A stretch of DNA of 64,000 bases, from positions 8,095 through 72,094 of the IMG/VR virus record IMGVR_UViG_3300022555_000023; one strand, 5' to 3'. The notes under the pieces were generated by a model that had not been told where the DNA came from, did not search any database, and saw only the letters and a list, made by a program, of their open reading frames with translations. How positions within the stretch are numbered: position 1 is the stretch's first letter; each line of letters starts with the position of its first letter. Shown piece after piece: positions 1 through 13,718 of this stretch. Origin of the DNA: a virus. Its lineage: Duplodnaviria; Heunggongvirae; Uroviricota; Caudoviricetes. The position numbers and the translations under genes are program-made.

Positions 1-1115
1 CCACCAAAGTCACGGGCGATCTTGGCGGGCATTTTGCCTGCGGGTGTGGGGCGATCAGCAGCCTGCCGCACACCAATGCGAGCACGGTTCGCGTCGGCGG
101 CTGCCTTATCGGCGGCCTGCACCCGCCGCGACATCGCCTCGTCGGTCGTGCTCAGTTGCGGTTTGGCAGCCGGTGGCGGAGCAACCGGGGCAGGCGGTGC
201 CACTGGTGCTGGGTTGGCAGCCTGCCACATGGCCTTGTGAGCGTCGTAAGCCTTCGCCGCCATGCGGTGGTGATTCTCGTTTTCCAGGGCCAGGGCGAAC
301 ATGGCCATCTTGTCGGGATCTTTGATCTTGCCGATGCGACGTTCCAGGGCGGCGTCGTCCATCGTCCTGAGACGCTTGTACTCATGGTCCATCGCCTTCT
401 CATAGGCACGCTCGCCCATGCGGTTGCGTAGATCGTCATGATCCGGCATTCGGTACTTGGCTCGTGGGGCGGCACCGCCGGATCCACCGCCGTTATCCGG
501 AGCCAACTTTGCTCCGCCCGCACCGCCCGACCACTGGTTACCGTGGAAAGGATGACCCGCAAGATCACCAAGCTCAAGGTCAAGGCCGCGGGAAAGCTTG
601 CCCGTGGACGACTTGTCGTCGTGATCAACGGCGGCGTCTTCGTGGGCACGGGCTAACGCACTGTAGGCCGCAGAAAGCTTCTCGTGCATGTCCTGGTGGT
701 TCGCGCCGTGCTCGGATGCCTCGCGACTATCGGCACGGTTATACTCCCTGCCGCGTAGCGGGCCGTCCGTGGGGCCGTCCTCGGCTGACTGACTGTATTT
801 GGCCGCCATCTTCTCAGCGTAGTCCTGGGCCGCACCGTGTGCGTTGGAGGCGGTGTCGTGATCGCTGCTGTTGCACTTCGGGCCGCACTTGCTGCTGGCC
901 TTCTGGGCATCATCTGAGGACGCCGTTACCTCGTCATCGTCATGGGTATCGACGCCCCGTTTGTCCGCTACACGCTTCAGGCGTTCGACGGTGTCGCGAG
1001 CCTTACCTACAGCGGCCCAGCGACCGTTCTCGTCGCGGGCCTGGTCGCCGCCCAGAGAAATAGCCTTGCCGCTAACCGGAAGGCTGAGAAACATATCGAC
1101 GATGAAGTTCTGCAT
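1..1115 (-). CDS. virion-associated protein with GHxFHGNQ[YW] module (C-terminus beyond window edge)
   Basis: Hand translation: ATG at 1115 with AAGGTGG SD stays open to base 1, so it is missing from the ORF track. N-terminus MQNFIVDMFLS is paralogous to 1125..1646. LELGDLAGHPFHGNQW is encoded at 531..578. Confidence 0.75.
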   Translation of the reverse strand, partial: MQNFIVDMFLSLPVSGKAISLGGDQARDENGRWAAVGKARDTVERLKRVADKRGVDTHDDDEVTASSDDAQKASSKCGPKCNSSDHDTASNAHGAAQDYAEKMAAKYSQSAEDGPTDGPLRGREYNRADSREASEHGANHQDMHEKLSAAYSALARAHEDAAVDHDDKSSTGKLSRGLDLELGDLAGHPFHGNQWSGGAGGAKLAPDNGGGSGGAAPRAKYRMPDHDDLRNRMGERAYEKAMDHEYKRLRTMDDAALERRIGKIKDPDKMAMFALALENENHHRMAAKAYDAHKAMWQAANPAPVAPPAPVAPPPAAKPQLSTTDEAMSRRVQAADKAAADANRARIGVRQAADRPTPAGKMPAKIARDFG

Positions 1116-1124
1116 GATACCACC

Positions 1125-1646
1125 TTATTCGTAATATACGCCGCCCAGGTCTCCCCGCACCTTCTTCAGGCCGGCATCCAAGTTGGCTTGCTCCCGAGCA
1201 CTAACGCGTCGCGGCTTGGACTTGGCTTCAGGATGATCGGCCTCGATGGATTTGGCGGCAGCCTCGTTGGCTGCCTTGGCCTTCATCTGGGCACTGGCGG
1301 CTTCACCGTCACGAGTTACGTCGCGGTAGTCGACGTGATTGTAAGTATCCTCGTGCTCCAGCCACGCCTTCTTATGATATTTTGCTGCGGAACGGTAAGC
1401 CACAACGGCCTTGCCGAACTTGCCTTTGGCGAGATGACCCTTAGCCTCGTCTGCCTTGGCCTGGGCCATGTCCGCATGATTCTTGGCACCCATAGCACCG
1501 TTCAGTGCTCTGGTCTTAGCGTTGGCCTCGGACGACGCGGTCTCGGCTGATGCAGTATACTGATTGCCGTGAAACGCGTGACCCGCCACGTCGCCCAGAA
1601 CGAGCGACGGCTGGCTCAAGAATAGATCGACGATGTAATTCTGCAC
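1125..1646 (-). CDS. small Ala/Lys-rich protein with N-proximal GHxFHGNQY module
   Basis: GTG start after AAGGAGA. MQNYIVDLFLSQPSLVLGDVAGHAFHGNQY, module at 1557..1604. Confidence 0.75.
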   Translation of the reverse strand: MQNYIVDLFLSQPSLVLGDVAGHAFHGNQYTASAETASSEANAKTRALNGAMGAKNHADMAQAKADEAKGHLAKGKFGKAVVAYRSAAKYHKKAWLEHEDTYNHVDYRDVTRDGEAASAQMKAKAANEAAAKSIEADHPEAKSKPRRVSAREQANLDAGLKKVRGDLGGVYYE

Positions 1647-1664
1647 GGCGGTCTCCTTTGATAT

Positions 1665-3203
1665 TTACTTCGCCAGAGCAGCCATACGCTCGGCCATCAC
1701 CACTGTCGCGGGACGTTCCAGAACCCATGCACCCTGGCTGAACACCAGAGGCAGGTTCTCGCCACGGCTCAGGGACACCAAACGTTCACCCGCGGCCTTG
1801 GCGAGGTCGTGTTTTCCCGCCCGCTTAAGGGCACCGACGAAGCGTTCCAGTTTGTCCTTGTTCTTGATCTTGTTGATGCGAGTGGCCAAGTCGCGGTCGT
1901 TCATGGTCAGAATTCGCATCTGCTCATGCTCTTCATTCGATGTGGCGGCCACCACCTTCTTCTCGGCCCGCCCGTAACTCTTGGTCTGACGGGCAGCCGG
2001 CTTGACGTCGCTGCGGAGAACGGGCTTGCCTTCACCTGGGGCACGCTCGACAATCCGCTTGGCCGCCGCACGGGCTCCCACCGCAGCACCAGCCTCGCCA
2101 CCGGCGTACTGGTTGCCGTGGAACGCGTGCCCGGCCTGTTCGAGAACGAGGTCGCCGTGGCTCAGGGAGGTGTCCTGACCACCGCCCTTCGCGTCCCACT
2201 TGTCGCAGTCGGCATCGTGCTTGGCCATCAGGGCGTTCATGGACGCACGGCTCGGGGCACCCTTCTTGCCGAAGGCCAGTTTCAGATCACCGCGACTCAG
2301 GGCTGCCGGTGCGGCTGCGGCTTCATCGTGGGACGCCTGGTTGATTTTCTTCCATCCCTTGTCGCGGCTGGCCCGCAGGGAATAGATATCCTCTAGCGGG
2401 ATGGCCCGCACGGGAATCTTCTTCTCGATGCCGCCCTGCTCCGCTGCCTTGGGCTTGCTGTTGCCGCCTTGCAGGAGATTCTTCTTGAGTTCCTTCACCT
2501 CTTCCGCCGGCAGGACGCGGCCCGTGGCATTGTCACGCCACTGCTCGTGCTCGCGTCGCACGTTGCCCTTGGCGTCGGTGTGCGGACGAAGCTGGAGGTA
2601 TTCACGTCCGGTATCGACGTGCTTGATGATCTGGGGGTTGTCGGCATCGTGCTGGCCGGCACCTTCGGGATGGGCCTTCGAGACCCACATGGGCTGCTTC
2701 TCGAAGTCCTGATCGAGACCCTCACGGCCCTGCTGGGCCTGCACGTTCTTCTCGTAATTGAACCCGACGTGGAAACGACCGACCGCTTCGCGGGTGACGC
2801 CCTGCGGGTACAGCTCCTCGGTCTTCTTGCCCTTGTTCGGATGCTCGCCGCCGTCCGCTGCGATGCCACGGTGCTTCTTGACCAGTTCACCGTTGGCTGC
2901 GGAGAAGACCTTACGGTGGGCGACGCTGATGATGTTGTTGCCCTTCTTGAGGTCGTTGTTCAGGAACTCGCGGGTCTTCGCACCGTGGATGCTGCCCGGC
3001 CCGTACTGGTTCCCGTGGAACTCGTGTCCCGTCACATCGCCCAATCGAAGAACTTCAAACTCGCCGCAGCCAAGGGACAGAAGGAGAACATCCGTCGTCG
3101 GCTTGCTGCTCGTGCCCAGCTTGATTTCCTTCGTACCGAAAAGCTGGTTACTCAGGCTCATGGCCCAGTCACCCACCGGACGGTTATCGAACATCCTCGT
3201 CAT
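1665..3203 (-). CDS. large protein with two GHxFHGNQY modules
   Basis: ORF 1665..3293 trimmed to ATG 3203 (AAGGAGAA SD, 5-nt spacer). LRLGDVTGHEFHGNQY at 3003..3050 and LVLEQAGHAFHGNQY at 2106..2150. Confidence 0.75.
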   Translation of the reverse strand: MTRMFDNRPVGDWAMSLSNQLFGTKEIKLGTSSKPTTDVLLLSLGCGEFEVLRLGDVTGHEFHGNQYGPGSIHGAKTREFLNNDLKKGNNIISVAHRKVFSAANGELVKKHRGIAADGGEHPNKGKKTEELYPQGVTREAVGRFHVGFNYEKNVQAQQGREGLDQDFEKQPMWVSKAHPEGAGQHDADNPQIIKHVDTGREYLQLRPHTDAKGNVRREHEQWRDNATGRVLPAEEVKELKKNLLQGGNSKPKAAEQGGIEKKIPVRAIPLEDIYSLRASRDKGWKKINQASHDEAAAAPAALSRGDLKLAFGKKGAPSRASMNALMAKHDADCDKWDAKGGGQDTSLSHGDLVLEQAGHAFHGNQYAGGEAGAAVGARAAAKRIVERAPGEGKPVLRSDVKPAARQTKSYGRAEKKVVAATSNEEHEQMRILTMNDRDLATRINKIKNKDKLERFVGALKRAGKHDLAKAAGERLVSLSRGENLPLVFSQGAWVLERPATVVMAERMAALAK

Positions 3204-3231
3204 GACGATTCTCCTTTGTAAGATCATTTGA

Positions 3232-4299
3232 TTAGACAATACCCTGCAGCACGGCTGCTGTGCGTCCAACCATAGACGCGATGGTGACTCCAATCGGGTT
3301 CAGTAGCTGGCCCGCGTTCTTGGTTCCGCCGTTGGGCAGGATGACCCAATACGGATCGGTGCCCGCTGCTGGTGCGGCTATGCCAAGAATCTTACAGAAG
3401 TTGTAGGGACCGATGAGACCCGTAAGACCCAGACCGTTCGGGATGCCGGCGGCGGTCGGTGCTGTGCCGGTAATCGCCCGGTAGCACATGTAGGTGCTGC
3501 CGTTTGTCGCAAGCATCCCAGGAACGTAGGACGTACCGCCCGCGTAGGCTCCGGGCGAACCGATACTGGTCGTGGCCGTGATGCTGGTCAACCACCGCAT
3601 CGTGGTGTTGGGGTTGCCCCAGTCCTTGATGTTGTAAGCCTCGCTGTACTGAGCCAGACTTCCGCCCGTCGTCAGCAAGGTTCCAGGCTGGCGAGCGTTA
3701 CCGGACACTCCGTAGCCGTCGCTGACACCCTGCGAAACGTTGGGTCCGAAAAGCTGGGAGGTCTGACCTGCGGCGATGTTCTGCACGTCAACCCGCACCT
3801 GATCGAGGACGTCCACCACCGTACCGTAGACCGCCCGCAGTCCGATGACCGCACCCGTGCCGCTGCTGGCCGCACCGGAGGAGTTGACAGCCGTGGTCGT
3901 GGCGAAGCCCGCCTTGTATCCCGTACCGGGAACCAAGGGCAAGACGGCGGTCACACCGCCCGTCGCGCTGATTCTGGCCACCACCACCTTGCCGCCCGAC
4001 GCCCCGGTCTGCACCAGGGTCAGGATGTCGCCGATGCGGTAGTTCTGCCCCGCACCGCCCGGCTGTGTGGCAGCCTTGGCCCAGGGTAGAAGGTCCGAGC
4101 CTGACGTCAGCACCGCCCGTCGAAACGGCTTCTTGTAGAAGGCGTCGATGGCCGCGTACTGCGTGGCCGAGATGTAGCCCGCTGTCGTGCCCGGCCCAGT
4201 GTACATGAGGCGGGCCATTCGCAGCAGGGCGAACTGGAAGTAGCGAATCTTCCGCCGCGGCGGCATTTCGCTGGACTGGTAGGTCTTCAATGTGGCCAT
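3232..4299 (-). CDS. putative virion structural protein, Gly/Thr/Ala-rich
   Basis: 355-aa ORF with ACGGAG SD. The composition resembles beta-rich fibre or decoration proteins. No family recognised. Confidence 0.6.
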   Translation of the reverse strand: MATLKTYQSSEMPPRRKIRYFQFALLRMARLMYTGPGTTAGYISATQYAAIDAFYKKPFRRAVLTSGSDLLPWAKAATQPGGAGQNYRIGDILTLVQTGASGGKVVVARISATGGVTAVLPLVPGTGYKAGFATTTAVNSSGAASSGTGAVIGLRAVYGTVVDVLDQVRVDVQNIAAGQTSQLFGPNVSQGVSDGYGVSGNARQPGTLLTTGGSLAQYSEAYNIKDWGNPNTTMRWLTSITATTSIGSPGAYAGGTSYVPGMLATNGSTYMCYRAITGTAPTAAGIPNGLGLTGLIGPYNFCKILGIAAPAAGTDPYWVILPNGGTKNAGQLLNPIGVTIASMVGRTAAVLQGIV

Positions 4300-4320
4300 T
4301 GTAATGGTGCTCCGTATGGT

Positions 4321-4824
4321 TTACTGAACTTCGGCGTCCGCCGTGCCGGTGACACGCGCTTGCAGGCCCGCTTCCCGCATGGCACGCACCACGCGTGCCC
4401 CGCAGTCGATGATCACGATCATAGCGTCCGTCTCAATGCGGGCCTGTGCGCCATTTCGCGAGACGGTTTGTTGAATTGCGTAGGTGTCCGTTGACCGGCG
4501 ACGCAGAGTGGCCAGGGTGCGTTCCAACGCGTGCAGCCTGTTCACAATGGTCGGATCCGGTTCGGGCACGCTGCCCACCACCGTGGGATCGCCGAAGCGG
4601 CGTCGCAGGAGGATGCCCTGCATTTCCCAGATGGCTCGGGCCAATTCCGCCGTGCGGCTTGCCAGGCCATCACCTGTGGCGATGTCCTCGATATCGGCGA
4701 GGAGGACGTCAAGGACAGCCTCGTCGGGATATGGCGTGCGGGGCGGCGGAGTGTATTGCGGCTGCTCGCGGATGATGCGACGGCGGCTGCTGGTGTTCGT
4801 TGTTGATTCGGCTACTTCTGGCAT
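4321..4824 (-). CDS. hypothetical protein
   Basis: 167-aa ORF with TAGGAGA SD. Confidence 0.65.
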   Translation of the reverse strand: MPEVAESTTNTSSRRRIIREQPQYTPPPRTPYPDEAVLDVLLADIEDIATGDGLASRTAELARAIWEMQGILLRRRFGDPTVVGSVPEPDPTIVNRLHALERTLATLRRRSTDTYAIQQTVSRNGAQARIETDAMIVIIDCGARVVRAMREAGLQARVTGTADAEVQ

Positions 4825-4863
4825 TTCGGAAATCTCCTAATTCGGCTTCGGATGATCGCGGGC

Positions 4864-5559
4864 TTATTTGCCCGCCTTGTGCTGCTCCCATGCAGCTTTG
4901 TTGACGTAGTACTGGCTGTGCTCATGCACGCTTGGCGACTGCCCCTTGGGCGTGACCAGCACCTGATTGTTTTGGGATCGCGTCGCGCTGCCACCGGCGG
5001 GATTGTGCTCGACGTAATCGCCTGCGGGAAGATGACCCGCGTAGGGCACACCGGCCTGATATCCGTGCGACGGGATTTTGCCGGCGGGAACGGTGACGGC
5101 TGACGCGAGCTTTGTTGCTTCGGCGTCGTGATTGGCCGCCTCTTCGAGATGACCCTTGACCTTGTTCTGATACTCCCGCTTGTTCTCCTGCCACTTTTCT
5201 AATGGCTCGTAACCTTCATCCTCGTACCGTGACGCGGGGTATGGAACCTTGGGGGCGGCTGGGAAATCGTCGAGGGCCTCGTTGATGACACTGGCCGCAC
5301 GCCGGTTCAAGTCGGCTGCGGTCTTATGGGCCTCGGGCGTGTTCTTATCGTAAGCATCGTTCGTGGCGTCGATGGCCTTATCGGAAGCCTTATCGGGATC
5401 GCCGCCGTCCGTGTACTGATTGCCGCGAAACTTGTGGCCGGCAACATCACCCAGAACCAGGTCACCGCCACGAAGGTTATCATGACTCAAGGTCATGTCG
5501 GAAGCGTGGCCCGGCTTGATTCCCAAAAAGGTGTCAATGGTCTTGTTCAGGCTCGACAT
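4864..5559 (-). CDS. protein with GHxFRGNQY module
   Basis: ORF trimmed to ATG 5559 (MSSLNKTIDTF). LVLGDVAGHKFRGNQY at 5413..5460. Confidence 0.7.
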   Translation of the reverse strand: MSSLNKTIDTFLGIKPGHASDMTLSHDNLRGGDLVLGDVAGHKFRGNQYTDGGDPDKASDKAIDATNDAYDKNTPEAHKTAADLNRRAASVINEALDDFPAAPKVPYPASRYEDEGYEPLEKWQENKREYQNKVKGHLEEAANHDAEATKLASAVTVPAGKIPSHGYQAGVPYAGHLPAGDYVEHNPAGGSATRSQNNQVLVTPKGQSPSVHEHSQYYVNKAAWEQHKAGK

Positions 5560-5613
5560 GATGTTACCTATGATACGATATGACGCAGCAGCACTGCAAG
5601 GGCTTAACTGCAT

Positions 5614-5689
5614 TGACTTCCATAATACACGGTTGGGGCAATCTTAGCGATACCATTACTTTTCTCATTTTACAATGATCTAAGTATGA
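5614..5689 (-). promoter_or_regulatory. AT-rich intergenic spacer, candidate promoter
   Basis: One of the few AT-rich gaps in the window. The minus strand contains TTGTAA-N17-TATCGC and TGTATTATGG (extended -10-like). Confidence 0.3.
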
Positions 5690-8600
5690 TCAACCCTTGG
5701 CATGCTGCTCAGCTTGGCGACGATAGAATCGTGCCCGACCGAAGTGATTACTCGCTCGGTTCGTGCTGCCGGCAGCTCGGTGCTTCACGGCAGAATCGGC
5801 AAACGCCTCAGATGCCCTGACTGCCAACGAGGCTTTCTCGCCCGGTGATGCCGTGGATGCTCGGTACGCCTTGCCCGCCTGCTGGGCCGTCTTCATGGCC
5901 GCGTCAGCACGCTCCTGCATGGCCGCGTAAGCTGGATGATCCTTGAGCTTGCCCTTGCGGTCTTCAAACTCGTGGTCGCTGGCCCCGTGCTCGTGCAGGT
6001 GCATGAAGGCCATCAGGGCTCGGGCCTGCTCGTCATGGTCTTCGGTTCCGGGCTGGTCTCCGACCGCCTCGGCCAGCTTGGCGGCCTTCATGTGCTTCAC
6101 CGCGGCATCGCCCAGGCGGTTGCCGATCCAGTGGTGCATGGAATCCTCGATGTCGGGCGTCAGGGCCTGCGGCGGTCCACCGTGGTGGTGGGCGTTCATG
6201 GCCTCGCCCGCAGCTATGCGGGCGGCGTAGTCGGCCTGCTCGTACTGGATAGCCTTCTTCGCGTCGGGCTCCTTGGGCTGGCCAGCACTGTACTGATTGC
6301 CGCGGAATTCATGCCCCGCAACGTCACCAAGCTCCAGCGGCACATCCAGACTCAACCGAGCGTCGCGGGGGCGGCGGGGAGGATGGGCTTCAGCCTGGGC
6401 CTTGGCCGCGTTATCTCGCAGGGCCTGCATCCTGCCGGCGGATGGCAGTCTGACCACGTGCTCGCCTGCTCCGCGTATGCGTCGCGATTCCTCCTCGTGT
6501 TCGCGAGCCGCAGAGATTGCTGCCTTCTGGGCGGCGTGGTGCATGCTGGCGAACTCCAGGCTGACGTCACTGCCGTCTTCTTCATGATGCTGGGCGGCGA
6601 GAACATGACCTTTAGCAGCCTTCTGGAACTGCTCGGCGGCCTTATCATGATCTGCCGCCGCACCGGAGGCAATGGCTTTCTTCGCCGTCACCAGGGCCAC
6701 GTTGTTATCGCTGGTCGACGCGATGCTCTTGGCTAGTGCGCCCTTCTGCACCGTACCGGCTAGGGGGAACAACTTATAGTTCCGGATGGCGGCGTTAGCC
6801 TTGGCAGATGATTCTGTTGCCGTGAACTGGTTGCCATGAAACGCGTGCCCTGCGACGTCACCAAGCTCGATAGGTAGATCATGACTCAGGCCCTTGATCT
6901 GGAAATCATTCTGACGGCCCTGCACGTTGGCATTGTGAGCATCCCCGTACTTGCGACCATGCTCGTCATCATCTTCCGGGTTCCAGCCGGCGGCAATGGC
7001 CTGCCTACGCATCTCATCTGCCTGGAGACTCATGCGTTTTCCCTGAGCCATCGAAGTATGACGTGTTGCCAGGTCTTCCAGCTTCTCAGGATCATTGGCA
7101 GCACTCTTCGCCACGGGCAAACCACGGTTCTCATACACGCCCCGCACGGTTCTGCCGACAGCCGCAGCCTCCCTCAGATGACCCGCAGCATCGAGATGAT
7201 GCTGTATGGCCTCGGGTGTATCCCCGGCAGCCAGAGCCCGTGATGCTGCTTGTCCAGCCTGCGTTGTATGGTACTTGTGCTCAACGTAGGCTGACATACT
7301 TACATCATTTGCCGCCGCGTGCGTATCATCATGAAGTTGCTGAGCTGCCGTGACTGCATTGCTTTGCGCTACCGCCGGCAATGCAGTCAAATCTGTCTGG
7401 GGACGGTCATGATACGGCTCGATCATATTCTTACCCACGCTTTGCTGCGGGTTTATGGGCAGTCCCGCATCGTGCGTGATCACAACAGCATTGCCGCGGT
7501 CTTCGACGACCCGGAAGTCACGAGCATCATCTCCGGGATCCTGCCACTCCGGTTTGATGGCTACCCGCTGGCCTGCCAGGTACTGGCCGTGCTGCTCGGC
7601 GGCTCCCTCCAGATACTTAGCCGTCTCAATATGCTCTCGTGCCGCCATTCTGTGCTGGCCGCGTTCAAGCTGGGTCAGCCTTGGTGCCTCAGAGGCATTC
7701 GCATGACCTTCGGCGGCGTCGCGACAACGTGATGCTGCGGCAGAATACAGGCCGTCCTTGACGAGACGCTTCGCATCATCTGAAGCGTCCACATGACGTT
7801 TGCCAGCCCGTGCGCCCTTCGTACTGTTGGTGGCGTCACTAGCCTTCTTCACAGCATCAACGGCTCCCTGGTGCGTGTACTGATTCCCGTGGAACTCGTG
7901 ACCTGCAACGTCACCAAGCTCAAGATCAATATTTAGGCCATGACCTAAATTTAGGTCATCGGCTAACGCGGTGTCAGTTTGGCTCATGGCCATATCCTCT
8001 GGTTTGGTACTTCCAGTCCAAGACTGGAGATGATGGTTCGCCAGTTCCTGTAGGGCCTCGCCGGCAGAGCGACAGGCGTCGGCGGCGTCTTCATGATATG
8101 AATCGTGACCATCGGAACTGTTCAGGTCAGCATCGTTGTGCAGGTCGGCTGTGTGATGATACTCGTTCGCAGCCCTCGCACAGGCTTTGAAAGCAGCGTC
8201 GTTCGACCGGCCCGAGGCTGACTCCTTCAGGGCGACCACGGCTGCCGTGTTGGCCGCACCGTGTGCGTCGCGTGCGGCTGCTCCGCGGCGACCGGGCGGT
8301 GAGCCAATGGCTTCCTTGCTGGCCTTGGCGGCGTAGTCTACGGCCTCCTGTGCGGTCGCGGCGAACCTCCCACGGGCGTCCCGTTCCTGGCCCTCGCCGT
8401 GGCTGGCCCGCAGATCTCCCCGCAGGGCGGTAGCTCCGTCGCCAACAGCGTCGTCCTTGGGCTGGCACGTCTGGCCGCAGGTCGGGCACTTACCATCCTG
8501 ACACGCACCCTTGCAGGCCGGGCAGGTGGCATCCTGGCTCAATGCGGCGTCCTTACCGCCACCGATGAGAACCGGGTGTCCGTTGATCGTGACCCAATGA

Positions 8601-9442
8601 GCATCGTCCGGAAGTTTGGATCCGGCGTTGTGCGTGCGGGCCTTCACGCGGTGCTGGGATGCTGCATCGGACAGGCCCGCCTTCTCGGCCTTGCGGGCTG
8701 CGTCATTCCGGTCTAGATAAGCGTTCCTGTGCGCCCGCCGCAGGTTGACCAGATTGCCGTGGGACGGATCCGCACGGTGGGCGTCCTCGGCGGATTTGAC
8801 CTGGGACGCACGACGGTCGGCCCGTGCAGATGCCGTGGCGTGCTTCTTCAGGTTGCCAGCCTTTTCCTTTTCGGCCTTCTTGGCAGCTTCGGCCTTCGCC
8901 TTATCATCTGCAACCTTTTTATCGGCGGCGGCCTTCTCCCTGGCCAGTCGTTGGCTGCGGGCCACGAAGCCCTCCTGTGGAGTCTGGGCGAGATTTCTGC
9001 GGCCCACGTTAAGAACGCGTCCAATAGCACGGTCGCCAAACACGTTCGTGTTCCAGGCCCCGCCCCGTCCGCGGTTGCGGCCCGCGTCGGTTCGGTCCTT
9101 GACGAACTTCTGCCAGTGCTTCTTGTCGGCTGCGGACATCATATCATGGGAGATCTCGTGATGCCCGCCGGGGTTGGCCTCCTGGTCATGCATCATATCG
9201 TATGCATGGTCGGCAGACTTGGCCGGGCCGTACAGGTTACCTTCTGATATTCCGGGCTGCTCGATGTAGTCGCTGTGGAAGTCGCTGCCCATCTCCGACC
9301 GCATGCGGTCGGCTTTATCTTCATCGGGATAAGGTGCGACGGCGCAGTACCATTTGCCCTTCTCGGGTTCAAAGACCACGCAGTCCCGCTGCACGGACAG
9401 AATCAGGGCGGGCATCTCAACGGGGATATCTAGGGCTGACAT
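5690..9442 (-). CDS. very large Ala-rich protein with three GHxF[HR]GNQ[YF] modules and a Cys-rich knuckle
   Basis: Start moved to ATG 9442 (AAGGATG SD), giving 1250 aa. Modules at 7877..7924, 6824..6871 and 6290..6337. CPACKGACQDGKCPTCGQTC cluster. Confidence 0.8.
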   Translation of the reverse strand: MSALDIPVEMPALILSVQRDCVVFEPEKGKWYCAVAPYPDEDKADRMRSEMGSDFHSDYIEQPGISEGNLYGPAKSADHAYDMMHDQEANPGGHHEISHDMMSAADKKHWQKFVKDRTDAGRNRGRGGAWNTNVFGDRAIGRVLNVGRRNLAQTPQEGFVARSQRLAREKAAADKKVADDKAKAEAAKKAEKEKAGNLKKHATASARADRRASQVKSAEDAHRADPSHGNLVNLRRAHRNAYLDRNDAARKAEKAGLSDAASQHRVKARTHNAGSKLPDDAHWVTINGHPVLIGGGKDAALSQDATCPACKGACQDGKCPTCGQTCQPKDDAVGDGATALRGDLRASHGEGQERDARGRFAATAQEAVDYAAKASKEAIGSPPGRRGAAARDAHGAANTAAVVALKESASGRSNDAAFKACARAANEYHHTADLHNDADLNSSDGHDSYHEDAADACRSAGEALQELANHHLQSWTGSTKPEDMAMSQTDTALADDLNLGHGLNIDLELGDVAGHEFHGNQYTHQGAVDAVKKASDATNSTKGARAGKRHVDASDDAKRLVKDGLYSAAASRCRDAAEGHANASEAPRLTQLERGQHRMAAREHIETAKYLEGAAEQHGQYLAGQRVAIKPEWQDPGDDARDFRVVEDRGNAVVITHDAGLPINPQQSVGKNMIEPYHDRPQTDLTALPAVAQSNAVTAAQQLHDDTHAAANDVSMSAYVEHKYHTTQAGQAASRALAAGDTPEAIQHHLDAAGHLREAAAVGRTVRGVYENRGLPVAKSAANDPEKLEDLATRHTSMAQGKRMSLQADEMRRQAIAAGWNPEDDDEHGRKYGDAHNANVQGRQNDFQIKGLSHDLPIELGDVAGHAFHGNQFTATESSAKANAAIRNYKLFPLAGTVQKGALAKSIASTSDNNVALVTAKKAIASGAAADHDKAAEQFQKAAKGHVLAAQHHEEDGSDVSLEFASMHHAAQKAAISAAREHEEESRRIRGAGEHVVRLPSAGRMQALRDNAAKAQAEAHPPRRPRDARLSLDVPLELGDVAGHEFRGNQYSAGQPKEPDAKKAIQYEQADYAARIAAGEAMNAHHHGGPPQALTPDIEDSMHHWIGNRLGDAAVKHMKAAKLAEAVGDQPGTEDHDEQARALMAFMHLHEHGASDHEFEDRKGKLKDHPAYAAMQERADAAMKTAQQAGKAYRASTASPGEKASLAVRASEAFADSAVKHRAAGSTNRASNHFGRARFYRRQAEQHAKG

Positions 9443-9672
9443 GATACATCCTTGGTTAGCGGCGGGCATGCTTCATGCGGTTCATGGCATGCCAAACATC
9501 GCAGGCATAATGATGCTGCGATGAAATTTGTGGCTTCAGTGATGAACTTCTCACGACGAGACGCTTCGTCCTTCTCATAGCGGCGGAACTTCTCATACAG
9601 GTTCTCAGCCAGGCGGCGAGCAAACTCGTCGTGATTACGCATCGCATCTCGGGCCTCCGTATCACATAGCAT
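9430..9672 (-). CDS. hypothetical small helical protein
   Basis: Part of ORF 9430..9735. RNHDEFARRLAENLYEKFRRYEKDEA looks protein-like. Start uncertain. Confidence 0.4.
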   Translation of the reverse strand: MLCDTEARDAMRNHDEFARRLAENLYEKFRRYEKDEASRREKFITEATNFIAASLCLRCLACHEPHEACPPLTKDVSCQP

Positions 9673-10579: not shown

Positions 10580-11283
10580 ATTGAGCCCCCTGGAAATGCA
10601 GCCCGCCCAGTCATTGGGCTTAAACGTTGCTCGCCTCGGGTGCTTCTAGATTTAAATGTGGGGCGGGGGCCTGAATCTGTTGCCGGGTCGGAAAAGCGAG
10701 TGGCGGCTGTGTTTGGCGCGTCCGACCCGATTTTCAAAGCTGTAGTCCCCGTGACCCCCCGTCCATGAGAAGCATCACGTCTCCTGTCTACATAGATACT
10801 GTCTACATAGATACTGTCTACATAGATACTGTCTACATAGATACTGTCTACATCCGCCCCCATGACTTCCGTTTGCTTCGGTATGATATCCTTATCATAT
10901 TGTTGTTGAATCAACGTGTGACGCGACGCACAACCACGCAACATGTCTATACAGATCTTGTTACGTCGCTGTGCGTTCATTACGCTACTCCTGTACACCG
11001 TCTTCGATCACGCGACGCAACCGTGATCTCCTGCGATCACTGGATGTCTTGCGTTGCACACGTCCATTAGATTACAGTTACTGTTCGCGTGTGTATGATC
11101 TTCATTCATCGTTCGTTTCATGAAGACGCGTCCTGTCACGCGTCTCACGCTCGTCCTTGGGTTTAAATCTTCCCTTAGAGTTGCCCAGCCATCTGTATGA
11201 CGTACACATCGTGCAACGCACGCTGCGTCTACGCTTACCGTTGGTCTTACGTCGTGTGCCCATGTGCGTGTGTGATCTCGTGG
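10580..11283. other. ~700-bp non-coding gap with tandem repeat and hairpins (candidate origin or regulatory hub)
   Basis: Only low-complexity or Arg-rich ORFs here. Inverted repeats GATCACG-N9-CGTGATC (~11007) and GACGCGT-N6-ACGCGTC (~11124). Stem GGGTCGGA..TCCGACCC (~10686-10729). Confidence 0.5.
10784..10854. repeat. 15-bp tandem repeat CTGTCTACATAGATA x 4.7
   Basis: Perfect head-to-tail copies read directly from the sequence. Confidence 0.95.
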
Positions 11284-12475: not shown

Positions 12476-13177
12476 TTACGCCAGCCTGTACTTCGTGAAC
12501 GTCCAGAAGGTCTCGAACAATGGGCAGTAGCGGCAGAACCTGTGAAACTCCGCCGTAGCCTCGTCCTGGAGAAGCCTGATGATTCTGGTTTCAGACTTCG
12601 ACTTGTGCTCGCCGGTTTGTGATATGACCCACTTGCCGCGGAAGGCCCGCGCTAGATTGAGCCTGTAATCCTCGGATGCATGAGTCGGCTCGACAGTCAT
12701 ATCATCAAAAACAACGTCGTACTTGTCGGCGTTCTCGTACAAGTATCGGAACGCGTCACCTACGTTCACGTGCAGCTTGTGGGCCTCGCCGTTAAGGCTT
12801 ATGGGAAAGTGCCGCCGGCAAACGTCGAGAACCTCGCTATCAATCTCACAGCATGTGACTCGTGCCACGTTGGGCAGGTCGCATAGCTCGGCTGCCAGGC
12901 TGCCGTCGCCTCCGCCCATGATCAAGACCCGCATGTGATCCATGTCGGGCAGCAGGTCGAGCATAGCCCGATCATACTCAGTATCACTGTTGGCCGACAT
13001 AACATCGTCGCCCACGATGAGGGTCTTGCCATGAGCCTCATGATCCATGACCCTAATGATCTGAAAAGGCGACTTGCGCTCTTCGAGAATTCCAGAGAAC
13101 TTGTACCTGACCGGCCCGACGCGGTCTTCACTGTAGATAGTCAGGGATAATCCGTCATCGTCCCACTGTGAGTTCAT
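12476..13177 (-). CDS. spermidine synthase-like aminopropyltransferase
   Basis: SPFQIIRV..GKTLIVGDDVMSANSDTEYDRAM, VLIMGGGDGS and CEIDSEVLDVCRRHFP match the spermidine synthase (SpeE) family pattern. Confidence 0.7.
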   Translation of the reverse strand: MNSQWDDDGLSLTIYSEDRVGPVRYKFSGILEERKSPFQIIRVMDHEAHGKTLIVGDDVMSANSDTEYDRAMLDLLPDMDHMRVLIMGGGDGSLAAELCDLPNVARVTCCEIDSEVLDVCRRHFPISLNGEAHKLHVNVGDAFRYLYENADKYDVVFDDMTVEPTHASEDYRLNLARAFRGKWVISQTGEHKSKSETRIIRLLQDEATAEFHRFCRYCPLFETFWTFTKYRLA

Positions 13178-13718
13178 TTGTCTTTCCTGTCAGGTCATCG
13201 TGAGGTGCATCCCGATACAGGAAGTTAACTTTCCTGAACTTGGGCTTGAATCGTTCGTCGATCATCTTCAGGACGACCGACTGGTCATACGGCTTGCACG
13301 AGAAGATATCGAAGTACATGCTGCCGATGCGGTTGTCGCCGTGCATGGAGATGTTACTGGTTGTGATAAGCTGTAACGCACTCCAGCCACCATCGGAATC
13401 CGTGCCGAAGTTATACAGGAACGGCTCGCCCACGGCGGTCATCTTGATGGCCGCGACCAGATCCTTGATGAACTTCTTGATCTGCTTGCCGTCGTCGATG
13501 TTCTTGTTGCAGCCGGAGCAGTCCACCATCATGTGAAAGCCCCAATGCTCCTTGCCGTCTTCGCCCGTGAACAGATCATTTCGGGGATCGCGTTTGAGGT
13601 CGACTACGGGCGACTCGGGAATCGCGGCGGCATCTACGGGAGCGTCGCCCTGGGCCAGTTTGAGGTCGGCCTCGCGACCAGGCCGCAGGGACAGGAAAGA
13701 ATTCAGTTCGTGGTTCAT
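13155..13718 (-). CDS. S-adenosylmethionine decarboxylase-like (pyruvoyl proenzyme type)
   Basis: GFHMMVDCSGC.., LQLITTSNISMHGD.. and YFDIFSCKPYD resemble class 1 AdoMetDC. T-S sits where the E-S self-cleavage site normally lies. Confidence 0.6.
   Translation of the reverse strand: MNHELNSFLSLRPGREADLKLAQGDAPVDAAAIPESPVVDLKRDPRNDLFTGEDGKEHWGFHMMVDCSGCNKNIDDGKQIKKFIKDLVAAIKMTAVGEPFLYNFGTDSDGGWSALQLITTSNISMHGDNRIGSMYFDIFSCKPYDQSVVLKMIDERFKPKFRKVNFLYRDAPHDDLTGKTNELTVGR

Follow-up and report, generated by a model that had tools for sequence, protein, structure and literature searches.

What is the function of a short peptide that recurs along a run of phage genes whose sequences are otherwise dissimilar? 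The question is posed by a 64,000-nucleotide stretch of tailed-phage DNA (Caudoviricetes; positions 8,095 to 72,094 of the IMG/VR record IMGVR_UViG_3300022555_000023), the whole of which is called the window here, and in which a sixteen-residue module of the form L-x-L-G-D-V-A-G-H-x-F-[HR]-G-N-Q-Y occurs eight times in a cluster of genes at one end. The answer that we prefer, tentatively, is that the module may be a T4-like capsid-targeting tag that stands before each packaged cargo cassette, and that it probably also serves as a processing site.

The module copies and their genes

The eight copies of the core GH.F.GNQ[YWF], termed type A here, lie exactly where an earlier reading of the letters alone (the sequence-only reading) had placed them, all on the minus strand and within long open reading frames (ORFs), and a six-frame search across the window gives no further match. 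The same pattern has no matches in 200 composition-matched first-order Markov random windows, and a looser pattern is expected 0.03 times per random window against the eight occurrences observed.

Five genes carry these copies, all of them on the minus strand. The first, gA (1..1115), is cut by the window edge; its full length in a public contig is 820 residues, and it has one module within the window (LELGDLAGHPFHGNQW, 531..578, residues 180-195) and a second, at residue 492, outside it. The 173-residue gB (1125..1646) consists of a leader (residues 1-11), a module (LVLGDVAGHAFHGNQY, 1557..1604, residues 15-30) and a helical cassette. In gC (1665..3203; 512 residues) there are two modules, with their GH at residues 59 and 358: LVLEQAGHAFHGNQY (2106..2150), which is without the GD and shorter by one residue, and LRLGDVTGHEFHGNQY (3003..3050). 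The single module of gF (4864..5613; 249 residues as an ORF, with a likely start at 5559 that gives 231 residues and the leader MSSLNKTIDTFLG) is LVLGDVAGHKFRGNQY (5413..5460). The largest, gG (5690..9442; 1250 residues), has LELGDVAGHEFRGNQY (6290..6337, residues 1036-1051), IELGDVAGHAFHGNQF (6824..6871, residues 858-873) and LELGDVAGHEFHGNQY (7877..7924, residues 507-522), the first two directly preceded by LSLDVP and LSHDLP, respectively. These three modules split the protein, as had been read, and with one module of a second type (type B, below) it comprises four cassettes. The earlier description of five adjacent genes holds for the number of module-bearing genes and not for strict adjacency, since the module-free gE and gD separate gF from gC. 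Gene calls in public assemblies bear out the five genes and place the start of gG at 9442 (nine codons downstream of the longest ORF start), that of gC at 3203 and, in some samples, that of gF at 5559; counted from these starts, the first module has its GH at residue 22 of gB, 41 of gF and 59 of gC.

Synonymous codons vary at the invariant Gly, Asn, His and Phe of the module (Gly8 uses four codons; Asn is AAC or AAT in a ratio of 4:4) and the pairwise DNA identity among copies is only 56-85% over 48 nt, so the conserved entity is the peptide and not a DNA repeat. An origin of the module as a DNA-level repeat or by gene conversion is ruled out by the codon variation. The sequences between modules are as dissimilar as they had first appeared, the 17 cassettes of the window phage being almost all mutually unlike.

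Distribution and consensus

A profile built from the eight window copies, a search that the sequence-only reading had suggested, matches 1017 cluster representatives at E <= 0.001, and 309 at E <= 1e-10, among 1.84 billion protein representatives; the carriers among these matches have up to nine copies per protein and lengths of up to 3461 residues. A scan of IMG/VR for GHxF[HR]GNQ gave 561 pattern matches, 264 of them confirmed, and the 69 loci retained hold 207 modules on 127 non-redundant ORFs (one to eight per protein), the module genes always being several neighbours on one strand. The logo of 199 copies reads [VIL]-x-K-G-D-[VLY]-[PA]-G-H-[PEA]-F-[HR]-G-N-Q-[WY]-[TS]-x-G, with a stretch rich in Gly after it. 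Its invariant positions are G, D, G, H, F, G, N and Q plus an aromatic residue, and it has no conserved Glu; the Leu in place of Lys that gives the LGD of the window phage is found in 12% of the copies.

The module is almost absent from cellular genomes: a narrower pattern has 14 occurrences in 596 Gb of bacterial and archaeal genomes, four of them confirmed and all four on contigs of metagenome-assembled genomes. Among 50,697 GenBank phages, one of two 21-residue tblastn queries gave a single module match, in Xanthomonas phage Rb1; the other query gave none, nor did a 79-residue query of concatenated modules. Since BLAST is underpowered for a motif of 17 residues, rarity among cultured phages is only weakly established. 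A homologous-protein search with the module alignment, or with the N-terminus of a 1677-residue protein described below, returned nothing, the family being out of reach of the word index. Arthrobacter phage Kovu, a cultured relative picked by capsid similarity, shares the synteny of the module loci and lacks the module.

No description of the type-A module was found in Pfam, PHROGs, NCBIfam or PDB sequences, or by a motif-string search of 8 million full texts. Membership of a known globular repeat domain, a possibility that the sequence-only reading had raised, is not borne out: the module falls outside every Pfam, PHROGs and NCBIfam model, its profile matches no PDB sequence, and its flanks are non-homologous to each other.

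Module genes lie among head genes and encode effectors

The window is part of a circular phage contig of ~192 kb from a metagenome (ERZ27245846 k141_83342), to which window positions 1-9500 are identical. On this contig the cluster extends past window position 1, in the order gG-gF-gE-gD-gC-gB-gA, genes for proteins of 160, 328 and 166 residues, the large terminase gene TerL (with an intein), then genes for 75, 1677 and 85 residues and the portal gene. At least 12 modules in six genes flank the packaging genes and delimit the 17 cassettes. The 1677-residue protein starts MIIDVPIILGDTAGHEFRGNQY, has three modules in all, the first at residue 14, and ends in a weakly PI3/PI4-kinase-like region. 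Database searches add little for this phage. No family in Pfam, PHROGs or NCBIfam matches the window proteins, no PDB sequence matches gG, gA or the 1677-residue protein, megablast and tblastn of the cluster region against the GenBank phages gave nothing, and a search of viral and metagenome contigs with the N-terminus of the 1677-residue protein gave no confirmed locus.

The relatives are more informative. Sixty-four module proteins from the IMG/VR loci include nine MuF proteins, four portals with C-terminal extensions and one XkdF-type S78_2 protease, and their effector domains are PI3/PI4-kinase or HipA-like, Acb1, GNAT, topoisomerase IB, ART-PolyVal, exotoxin-type ADP-ribosyltransferase and 2H phosphoesterase. 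A further 39 carriers add ParB_N, zeta toxin, NUDIX, Tpt1, PARP, InPase and cytidylyltransferase, and several unrelated effector domains may be joined in one polypeptide. In a recurring gene order, the portal gene is followed by one for a long protein with a C-terminal S78_2 protease domain, then by the module genes, scaffold and major head protein; a second group of loci has terminase, a portal that carries a module after its portal domain, and more module genes. The window cluster adjoins TerL and portal; in relatives, module genes either occupy the interval from portal or protease to scaffold or major head protein or form fusions with portal or MuF. In Rb1 the module is at about residue 745 of a 1221-residue protein annotated as ‘internal head protein’, with InPase-like and DarA-like domains, and the neighbours of its gene encode a DarA-N protein, a metallopeptidase and a 2238-residue SNF2 protein, an arrangement that resembles the Dar system of P1.

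The sequence-only reading had guessed at internal or ejected virion proteins, of the kind of MuF-like or polyvalent head proteins. The adjacency to terminase and portal, the MuF, portal, protease and multi-effector carriers and the DarA-like protein of Rb1 agree with that guess, and gene content and order place the module in a class of head-associated, probably ejected, proteins.

Position of the module within proteins

Where domains can be recognised, in six proteins, the module always lies between them, usually 30-50 residues ahead of the next. In L068 (numbers prefixed L denote loci), a GNAT domain (residues 220-321) is followed by a module at 365 and topoisomerase IB at 397-638; in L045, modules at 1102 and 1331 enclose an ADP-ribosyltransferase (ART) domain at 1147-1310; L017 has modules at 38 and 493 around an ART domain at 99-241 in one protein, and a module at 1114 before a kinase at 1161-1293 in another; in L014 a module at 783 follows MuF at 673-767; and in L015 a module at 1088 precedes DUF7178 at 1136-1392. 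Successive modules are about a domain's length apart (median 200-243 residues).

The placement is asymmetric. In 53-57% of proteins the first module is no more than 60 residues from the N-terminus, and in 29% no more than 25, the minimum being residue 7; often the protein nearly starts with it (MRNLAKGDLPGH, MQVLELGDKPGH and MSRLELGDTPGH; in the window phage, MIIDVPIILGDTAGH). At the other end, 90-95% of proteins have at least 102-112 residues between their last module and the C-terminus. This asymmetry suggests that the functional unit is the module together with the cassette behind it. Conserved leaders stand ahead of the first module in small proteins, among them MSNPF..L.P.W..EILKGD, MSGFTT.ELLYPLTKGD and ..LNAEIIxWVxFAKGD. 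Together, the asymmetry, these leaders and the copies that open a protein with nothing ahead of them point to a signal that would belong to the downstream cassette, and position thus favours a handle on that cassette. A single-sequence AlphaFold model of gB gives its leader and module (residues 1-32) a predicted local distance difference test score (pLDDT) below 50, followed by four confident helices, which hints that this region may be a flexible, disordered peptide.

In the window phage a leader is common to cluster proteins that are otherwise dissimilar. It reads MQNFIVDMFLS at the N-terminus of gA (1083..1115, minus strand), is shared with gB as MQN[FY]IVD[ML]FLS (1614-1646, minus strand), and is MSIIVDLFLS in the 328-residue neighbour (L070:16144-16176); that of gF, given above, is at 5521-5559 (minus strand).

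Cassettes have been shuffled at modules

A related phage, with a gD 73% and a gE 87% identical to those of the window phage, has the same cluster partitioned differently into genes. Its 422-residue protein begins with the leader and module of gB (91% identical over 32 residues), continues with gA 180-500 (59%), which is the inter-module segment of the window phage's gA, and ends with the gB cassette, gB 14-173 (67%). Its 291-residue protein has a new leader and module, followed by the last gA cassette, gA 484-820 (51%). All three rearrangement breakpoints are inside modules. The gC of the relative has one extra module-bounded cassette and its gG is missing one block. Leaders and modules are more conserved than cassettes, and the cassettes diverge faster than gD and gE.

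A second module type and other short elements

What had been read as a possible degenerate ninth copy, LGGDQARDENGRW (1017..1055, minus strand; gA residues 21-33), proved to be a distinct recurrent motif, [QE]xRDxxGR[FW], with the full form [KA][YF][ND]P[DN]Q[PE]RDxxGR[FW]xxGGG. This type-B motif is found in the same kinds of position as the GNQ module. In the window phage it recurs as GEGQERDARGRFAA in gG (8357..8398, minus strand; residues 349-362) and, for the third time, in the 328-residue neighbour. A 2298-residue protein of L061 (L061:5621-12514) has six type-B copies and one type-A module, and further type-B copies are present in L033, L059, L063, L066, L067 and L068. A motif-string search of the full-text literature gave no relevant paper for it, and no description of it was found in the polyvalent-protein paper (PMC5512222), Pfam, PHROGs, NCBIfam or PDB sequences.

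In the cultured Nocardia phage P3.1 (L085 6246-7699) the type-B motif starts three consecutive genes between portal and capsid, two with the N-terminus MARNYKRDG[KR]GRFAK and one, annotated as a capsid maturation protease, with MARRKFNPRQPRDLRGRW. For a motif at residues 5-18 of a protease, an incorporation handle would be an easier reading than a site of cleavage.

Two other elements are seen in these proteins. The residues upstream of some type-A modules in this lineage form an extension, (S)LD[VI]P[LI]EL (6338-6355 and 6872-6889, minus strand), which stands alone as the N-terminus of gG (MSALDIPVEM; 9395-9442, minus strand) and occurs twice in the 3461-residue protein P0001 without the GH..GNQ part, once directly ahead of a HAD-like DxDxT motif. 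The short element HWVTINGHPVLIGGG of gG (8555-8599, minus strand) resembles GRWVTMHGSPVFIKTG (1677-residue protein, P0029) and GYWITTHGGHHVFILEGG (P0001), and may be either a small domain or a third element of the recurrent kind.

A tag for capsid cargo?

In the reading that we prefer, the module would be a portable address tag for capsid cargo, a short linear motif with which each domain-sized cassette begins, in proteins that become part of the head and are passed on to the host. We infer that a head-assembly component recognises the module, so that the downstream cassette is loaded into the procapsid, and that in multi-cassette proteins, and in the fusions to portal, MuF or protease, the module probably also marks a cut by the maturation protease between cassettes. 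The six genes around terminase and portal in the window phage would thereby encode at least 17 separate cargo units. An additional separating role is suggested because copies lie behind portal, MuF and protease domains, which enter heads by themselves, and at every domain boundary of the giant proteins. A combined role in targeting and processing, like that in T4, covers all the contexts in which the module is found.

Several points weigh against this reading. The literature searched holds no virion proteomic data on any module-bearing phage, and for packaging the DarA-like domain of the Rb1 protein offers the only indirect support. A single lineage-specific partner is an awkward proposal, since the 17 residues stay nearly identical whether the portal is of the Portal_Mu or the Phage_portal_3 family and whether the candidate protease is S78_2, Mu-like_Pro or DUF2213-like. 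A targeting signal should be needed once per polypeptide, yet up to nine copies occur, and 17 conserved positions exceed those of known prohead-protease sites. The window cassettes show no recognisable effector domain in Pfam, PHROGs, NCBIfam or PDB sequences, and neither a protease nor a metallopeptidase-like cassette of the kind described in the next paragraph is found in the window, L070 or L081-L083, a search that leaves ~110 kb of genome outside it. The gB model is weak, coming from a single sequence. In the IMG/VR loci the ORF starts were set heuristically; the placement asymmetry was confirmed on 149 public gene calls.

Could the module be purely a processing site, at which the head-maturation protease or an embedded metallopeptidase cuts polyproteins to mature units, with no part in targeting? 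This is possible, if doubtful. It would suit modules that stand at every domain boundary, up to nine to a protein, and candidate enzymes are at hand. S78_2-like domains are present in 18 of 70 loci, in genes adjoining module genes, and four S78_2-bearing proteins have a module behind the protease domain; other locus groups have Mu-like_Pro or DUF2213-like proteins. Two families of gluzincin-like cassettes with HExxH...ExxAExF occur in 41 of the 150 best-scoring proteins (P0007-P0149; about five by chance) and in 16 of 70 loci (for example L036:8270-11347, L039:5272-8679, L047:3611-5896 and L033:1745-8488). Of 18 cassette-bearing proteins in the loci, 16 have the module as well. Pfam does not recognise these cassettes, either as a family or as MPTase; they are candidate processing peptidases or effectors, and embedded peptidases were proposed as the processors of polyvalent proteins by Iyer et al. 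(PMC5512222). However, cuts at N-terminal copies with 2-10 residues upstream would be pointless, and the near absence of modules from C-termini is not predicted. The motif is also far longer and more conserved than the L/I-x-E sites of T4 or the Glu-P1 sites of phiKZ and SPN3US, it stays constant across phages with different protease families, and no protease was found near the window cluster in the window, L070 or L081-L083. Separation without a dedicated protease, by self-cleavage (for example through Asn chemistry) or by translational skipping like that of the 2A peptides of eukaryotic viruses, would be independent of protease family, and the module does have a 2A-like size (~18 residues) and inter-domain placement, and invariant His, Asp, Asn and Gln. 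Such a mechanism is nevertheless highly improbable: it has no known precedent in bacteria, it makes no sense of the conserved leaders and of N-terminal copies without upstream cargo, and self-cleaving motifs normally lie within a folded domain whereas the region here is predicted to be unstructured. Autoprocessing by the module, one of the possibilities raised by the sequence-only reading, finds no support.

A role after packaging, as a signal for ejection or translocation or as a common motif for interactions on the host side, would be in keeping with carriers of the effector type, expected to act in the host, with an N-terminal placement typical of export signals, and with a motif that is independent of capsid, portal and protease family. 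It is an unlikely role for a motif that is also present on portal and protease fusions, which stay or act in the head; no host partner suggests itself, and an internal copy could serve as an N-terminal signal only after cleavage. The shuffling between the two related phages, with its breakpoints inside modules, raises a further alternative, that the module is a passive hinge spread by cassette exchange and not specifically recognised; the Gly-rich linker after it and the predicted disorder of the region would agree. We regard this as improbable, because eight positions invariant over hundreds of 50%-identity clusters, with varying codons, imply strong selection on the peptide, because 56-85% identity over 48 nt is a poor substrate for homologous recombination, and because a strict difference between N- and C-terminal placement would be unexpected. 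It is similarly a long shot that the peptide is self-sufficient in any phage, either as a self-cleaving separator or as a direct (even covalent, via Asn) anchor to the interior of the HK97-fold capsid, an idea that would explain the same 17 residues despite different portal, capsid and protease families.

Comparison with known systems

A close functional parallel to the proposed tag would be the capsid-targeting sequence of T4 IPIII (Mullaney and Black), which directs cargo into the prohead and contains a cut site for gp21 (PMC9024508, PMC10052503). By analogy, the module too would be a short N-terminal peptide, portable between cargos, on head-internal, ejected proteins, and its position in the window phage is of the T4 kind in gB (residue 22), gF (residue 41) and the 1677-residue protein (residue 14). 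The T4 sequence differs in being ~10 residues long, ending in L/I-x-E and bearing no sequence resemblance to the module; the 199-module logo has no such gp21-type end. It is also present once, at the N-terminus of each protein, whereas the module has up to nine internal copies, at domain boundaries, and is near-identical across very different phages. A gp21-type site within LELGD or PIELGD was rejected because the Glu is not conserved (LELGD, LVLGD, LRLGD), and an adenain-like site of the form (M/L/I)XGX-G because KGD, not LGD, is what most phages have.

In P1, the N-terminal 30 residues of DarB suffice for incorporation into the head, and no consensus among the N-termini of the Dar proteins was found by the authors (PMC9024508). 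The Dar proteins are large antirestriction or effector proteins packaged in the head, as module carriers would be, and the module protein of Rb1 is DarA-like and encoded in a Dar-like cluster; the module differs in its strict consensus over hundreds of protein clusters, and none was found in P1 proteins by short-query tblastn, as far as such queries reach. The ejection proteins of SPN3US have N-terminal propeptides of 20-254 residues that the prohead protease cuts at a shared motif (PMC10052503). Phages of the phiKZ/SPN3US type resemble the window phage, as interpreted here, in being large, with many paralogous head-internal proteins and several copies of a motif per propeptide (PMC10052503). 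However, their site is short and cut after Glu, in contrast to a 17-residue module with no conserved Glu, and the segments between their sites are discarded propeptide, whereas those between modules are domain-sized cassettes, often recognisable enzymes.

Polyvalent proteins were described by Iyer et al. in 2017 as multi-effector proteins, linked to MuF or portal, that were proposed to be processed into units (PMC5512222). They have the same domains as module carriers (ART-PolyVal, InPase, 2H, ParB, kinases, peptidases), but that work credits an MPTase domain with the processing, leaves the sites undefined and makes no mention of the module (PMC5512222). The module would give them a common delimiter, and with it the class would take in many small proteins of a single cassette.

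The cargo-loading peptides of encapsulins offer a parallel outside phages. They are short, conserved and on flexible linkers, and dock cargo inside a shell of HK97 fold; their consensus is different from that of the module, they are usually C-terminal and no proteolysis is involved. Such peptides are not known in tailed phages. Targeting and processing signals on head-internal proteins are thus already known in general; what would be new is a strictly conserved, multi-copy, cassette-delimiting tag common to hundreds of protein clusters.

If the module marks head cargo, the injected proteins of uncultivated phages could be read from sequence, where at present they are found only by virion proteomics of cultured phages. 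Such sets would include anti-defence enzymes (Acb1, ADP-ribosyltransferases, kinases, nucleases), and the window phage alone would contribute at least 17 candidate cargo units without known function. Polyvalent proteins, so far defined by domain content alone, would gain a defining delimiter, and exchange of cassettes between genes can now be traced by module boundaries. A short tag that is portable across lineages could also serve to load foreign proteins into phage heads.

Other features of the region

Two module-free genes lie in the middle of the cluster. The gD protein (3232..4299, minus strand; 355 residues) is rich in Gly, Thr and Ala and has no His; an identical protein is encoded on nine public contigs, only four homologues are detectable, and it belongs to no family. 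Its AlphaFold model is unusable (pLDDT 30.6), and an identification as the major capsid protein gained no support, hhalign against the capsid family of related loci giving a probability of 0.1. The Arg-rich gE protein (4321..4824, minus strand; 167 residues) is encoded by the most conserved gene of the cluster, its counterpart in the relative being the one 87% identical.

Elsewhere, the contig has T4-like replication and recombination genes, encoding gp32-like, RecA/UvsX-like and SbcCD-like proteins and a family A polymerase. The large terminase is split in its Walker A region by a LAGLIDADG-type intein, ...ASRGAGKC / SEMAKRK... (L070:17668-20433, beyond window position 1); that of the relative, in L082, is uninterrupted (ASRGAGKSEMAKRR). 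Upstream of the cluster, a 15-bp unit, CTGTCTACATAGATA, is perfectly repeated in tandem for 4.7 copies (10784-10853). The window and a JGI contig each have four full units, the 192-kb ENA contig two; the repeat thus varies in number between samples. A few kilobases upstream of the cluster are genes of the S-adenosylmethionine decarboxylase and spermidine synthase families (12476-13718, minus strand), and these polyamine biosynthesis genes keep their position in the related phage. Just upstream of its cluster, the relative also encodes a protein with a response-regulator receiver and a PAS-like domain (L081:4627-5574), which is unusual for a phage.

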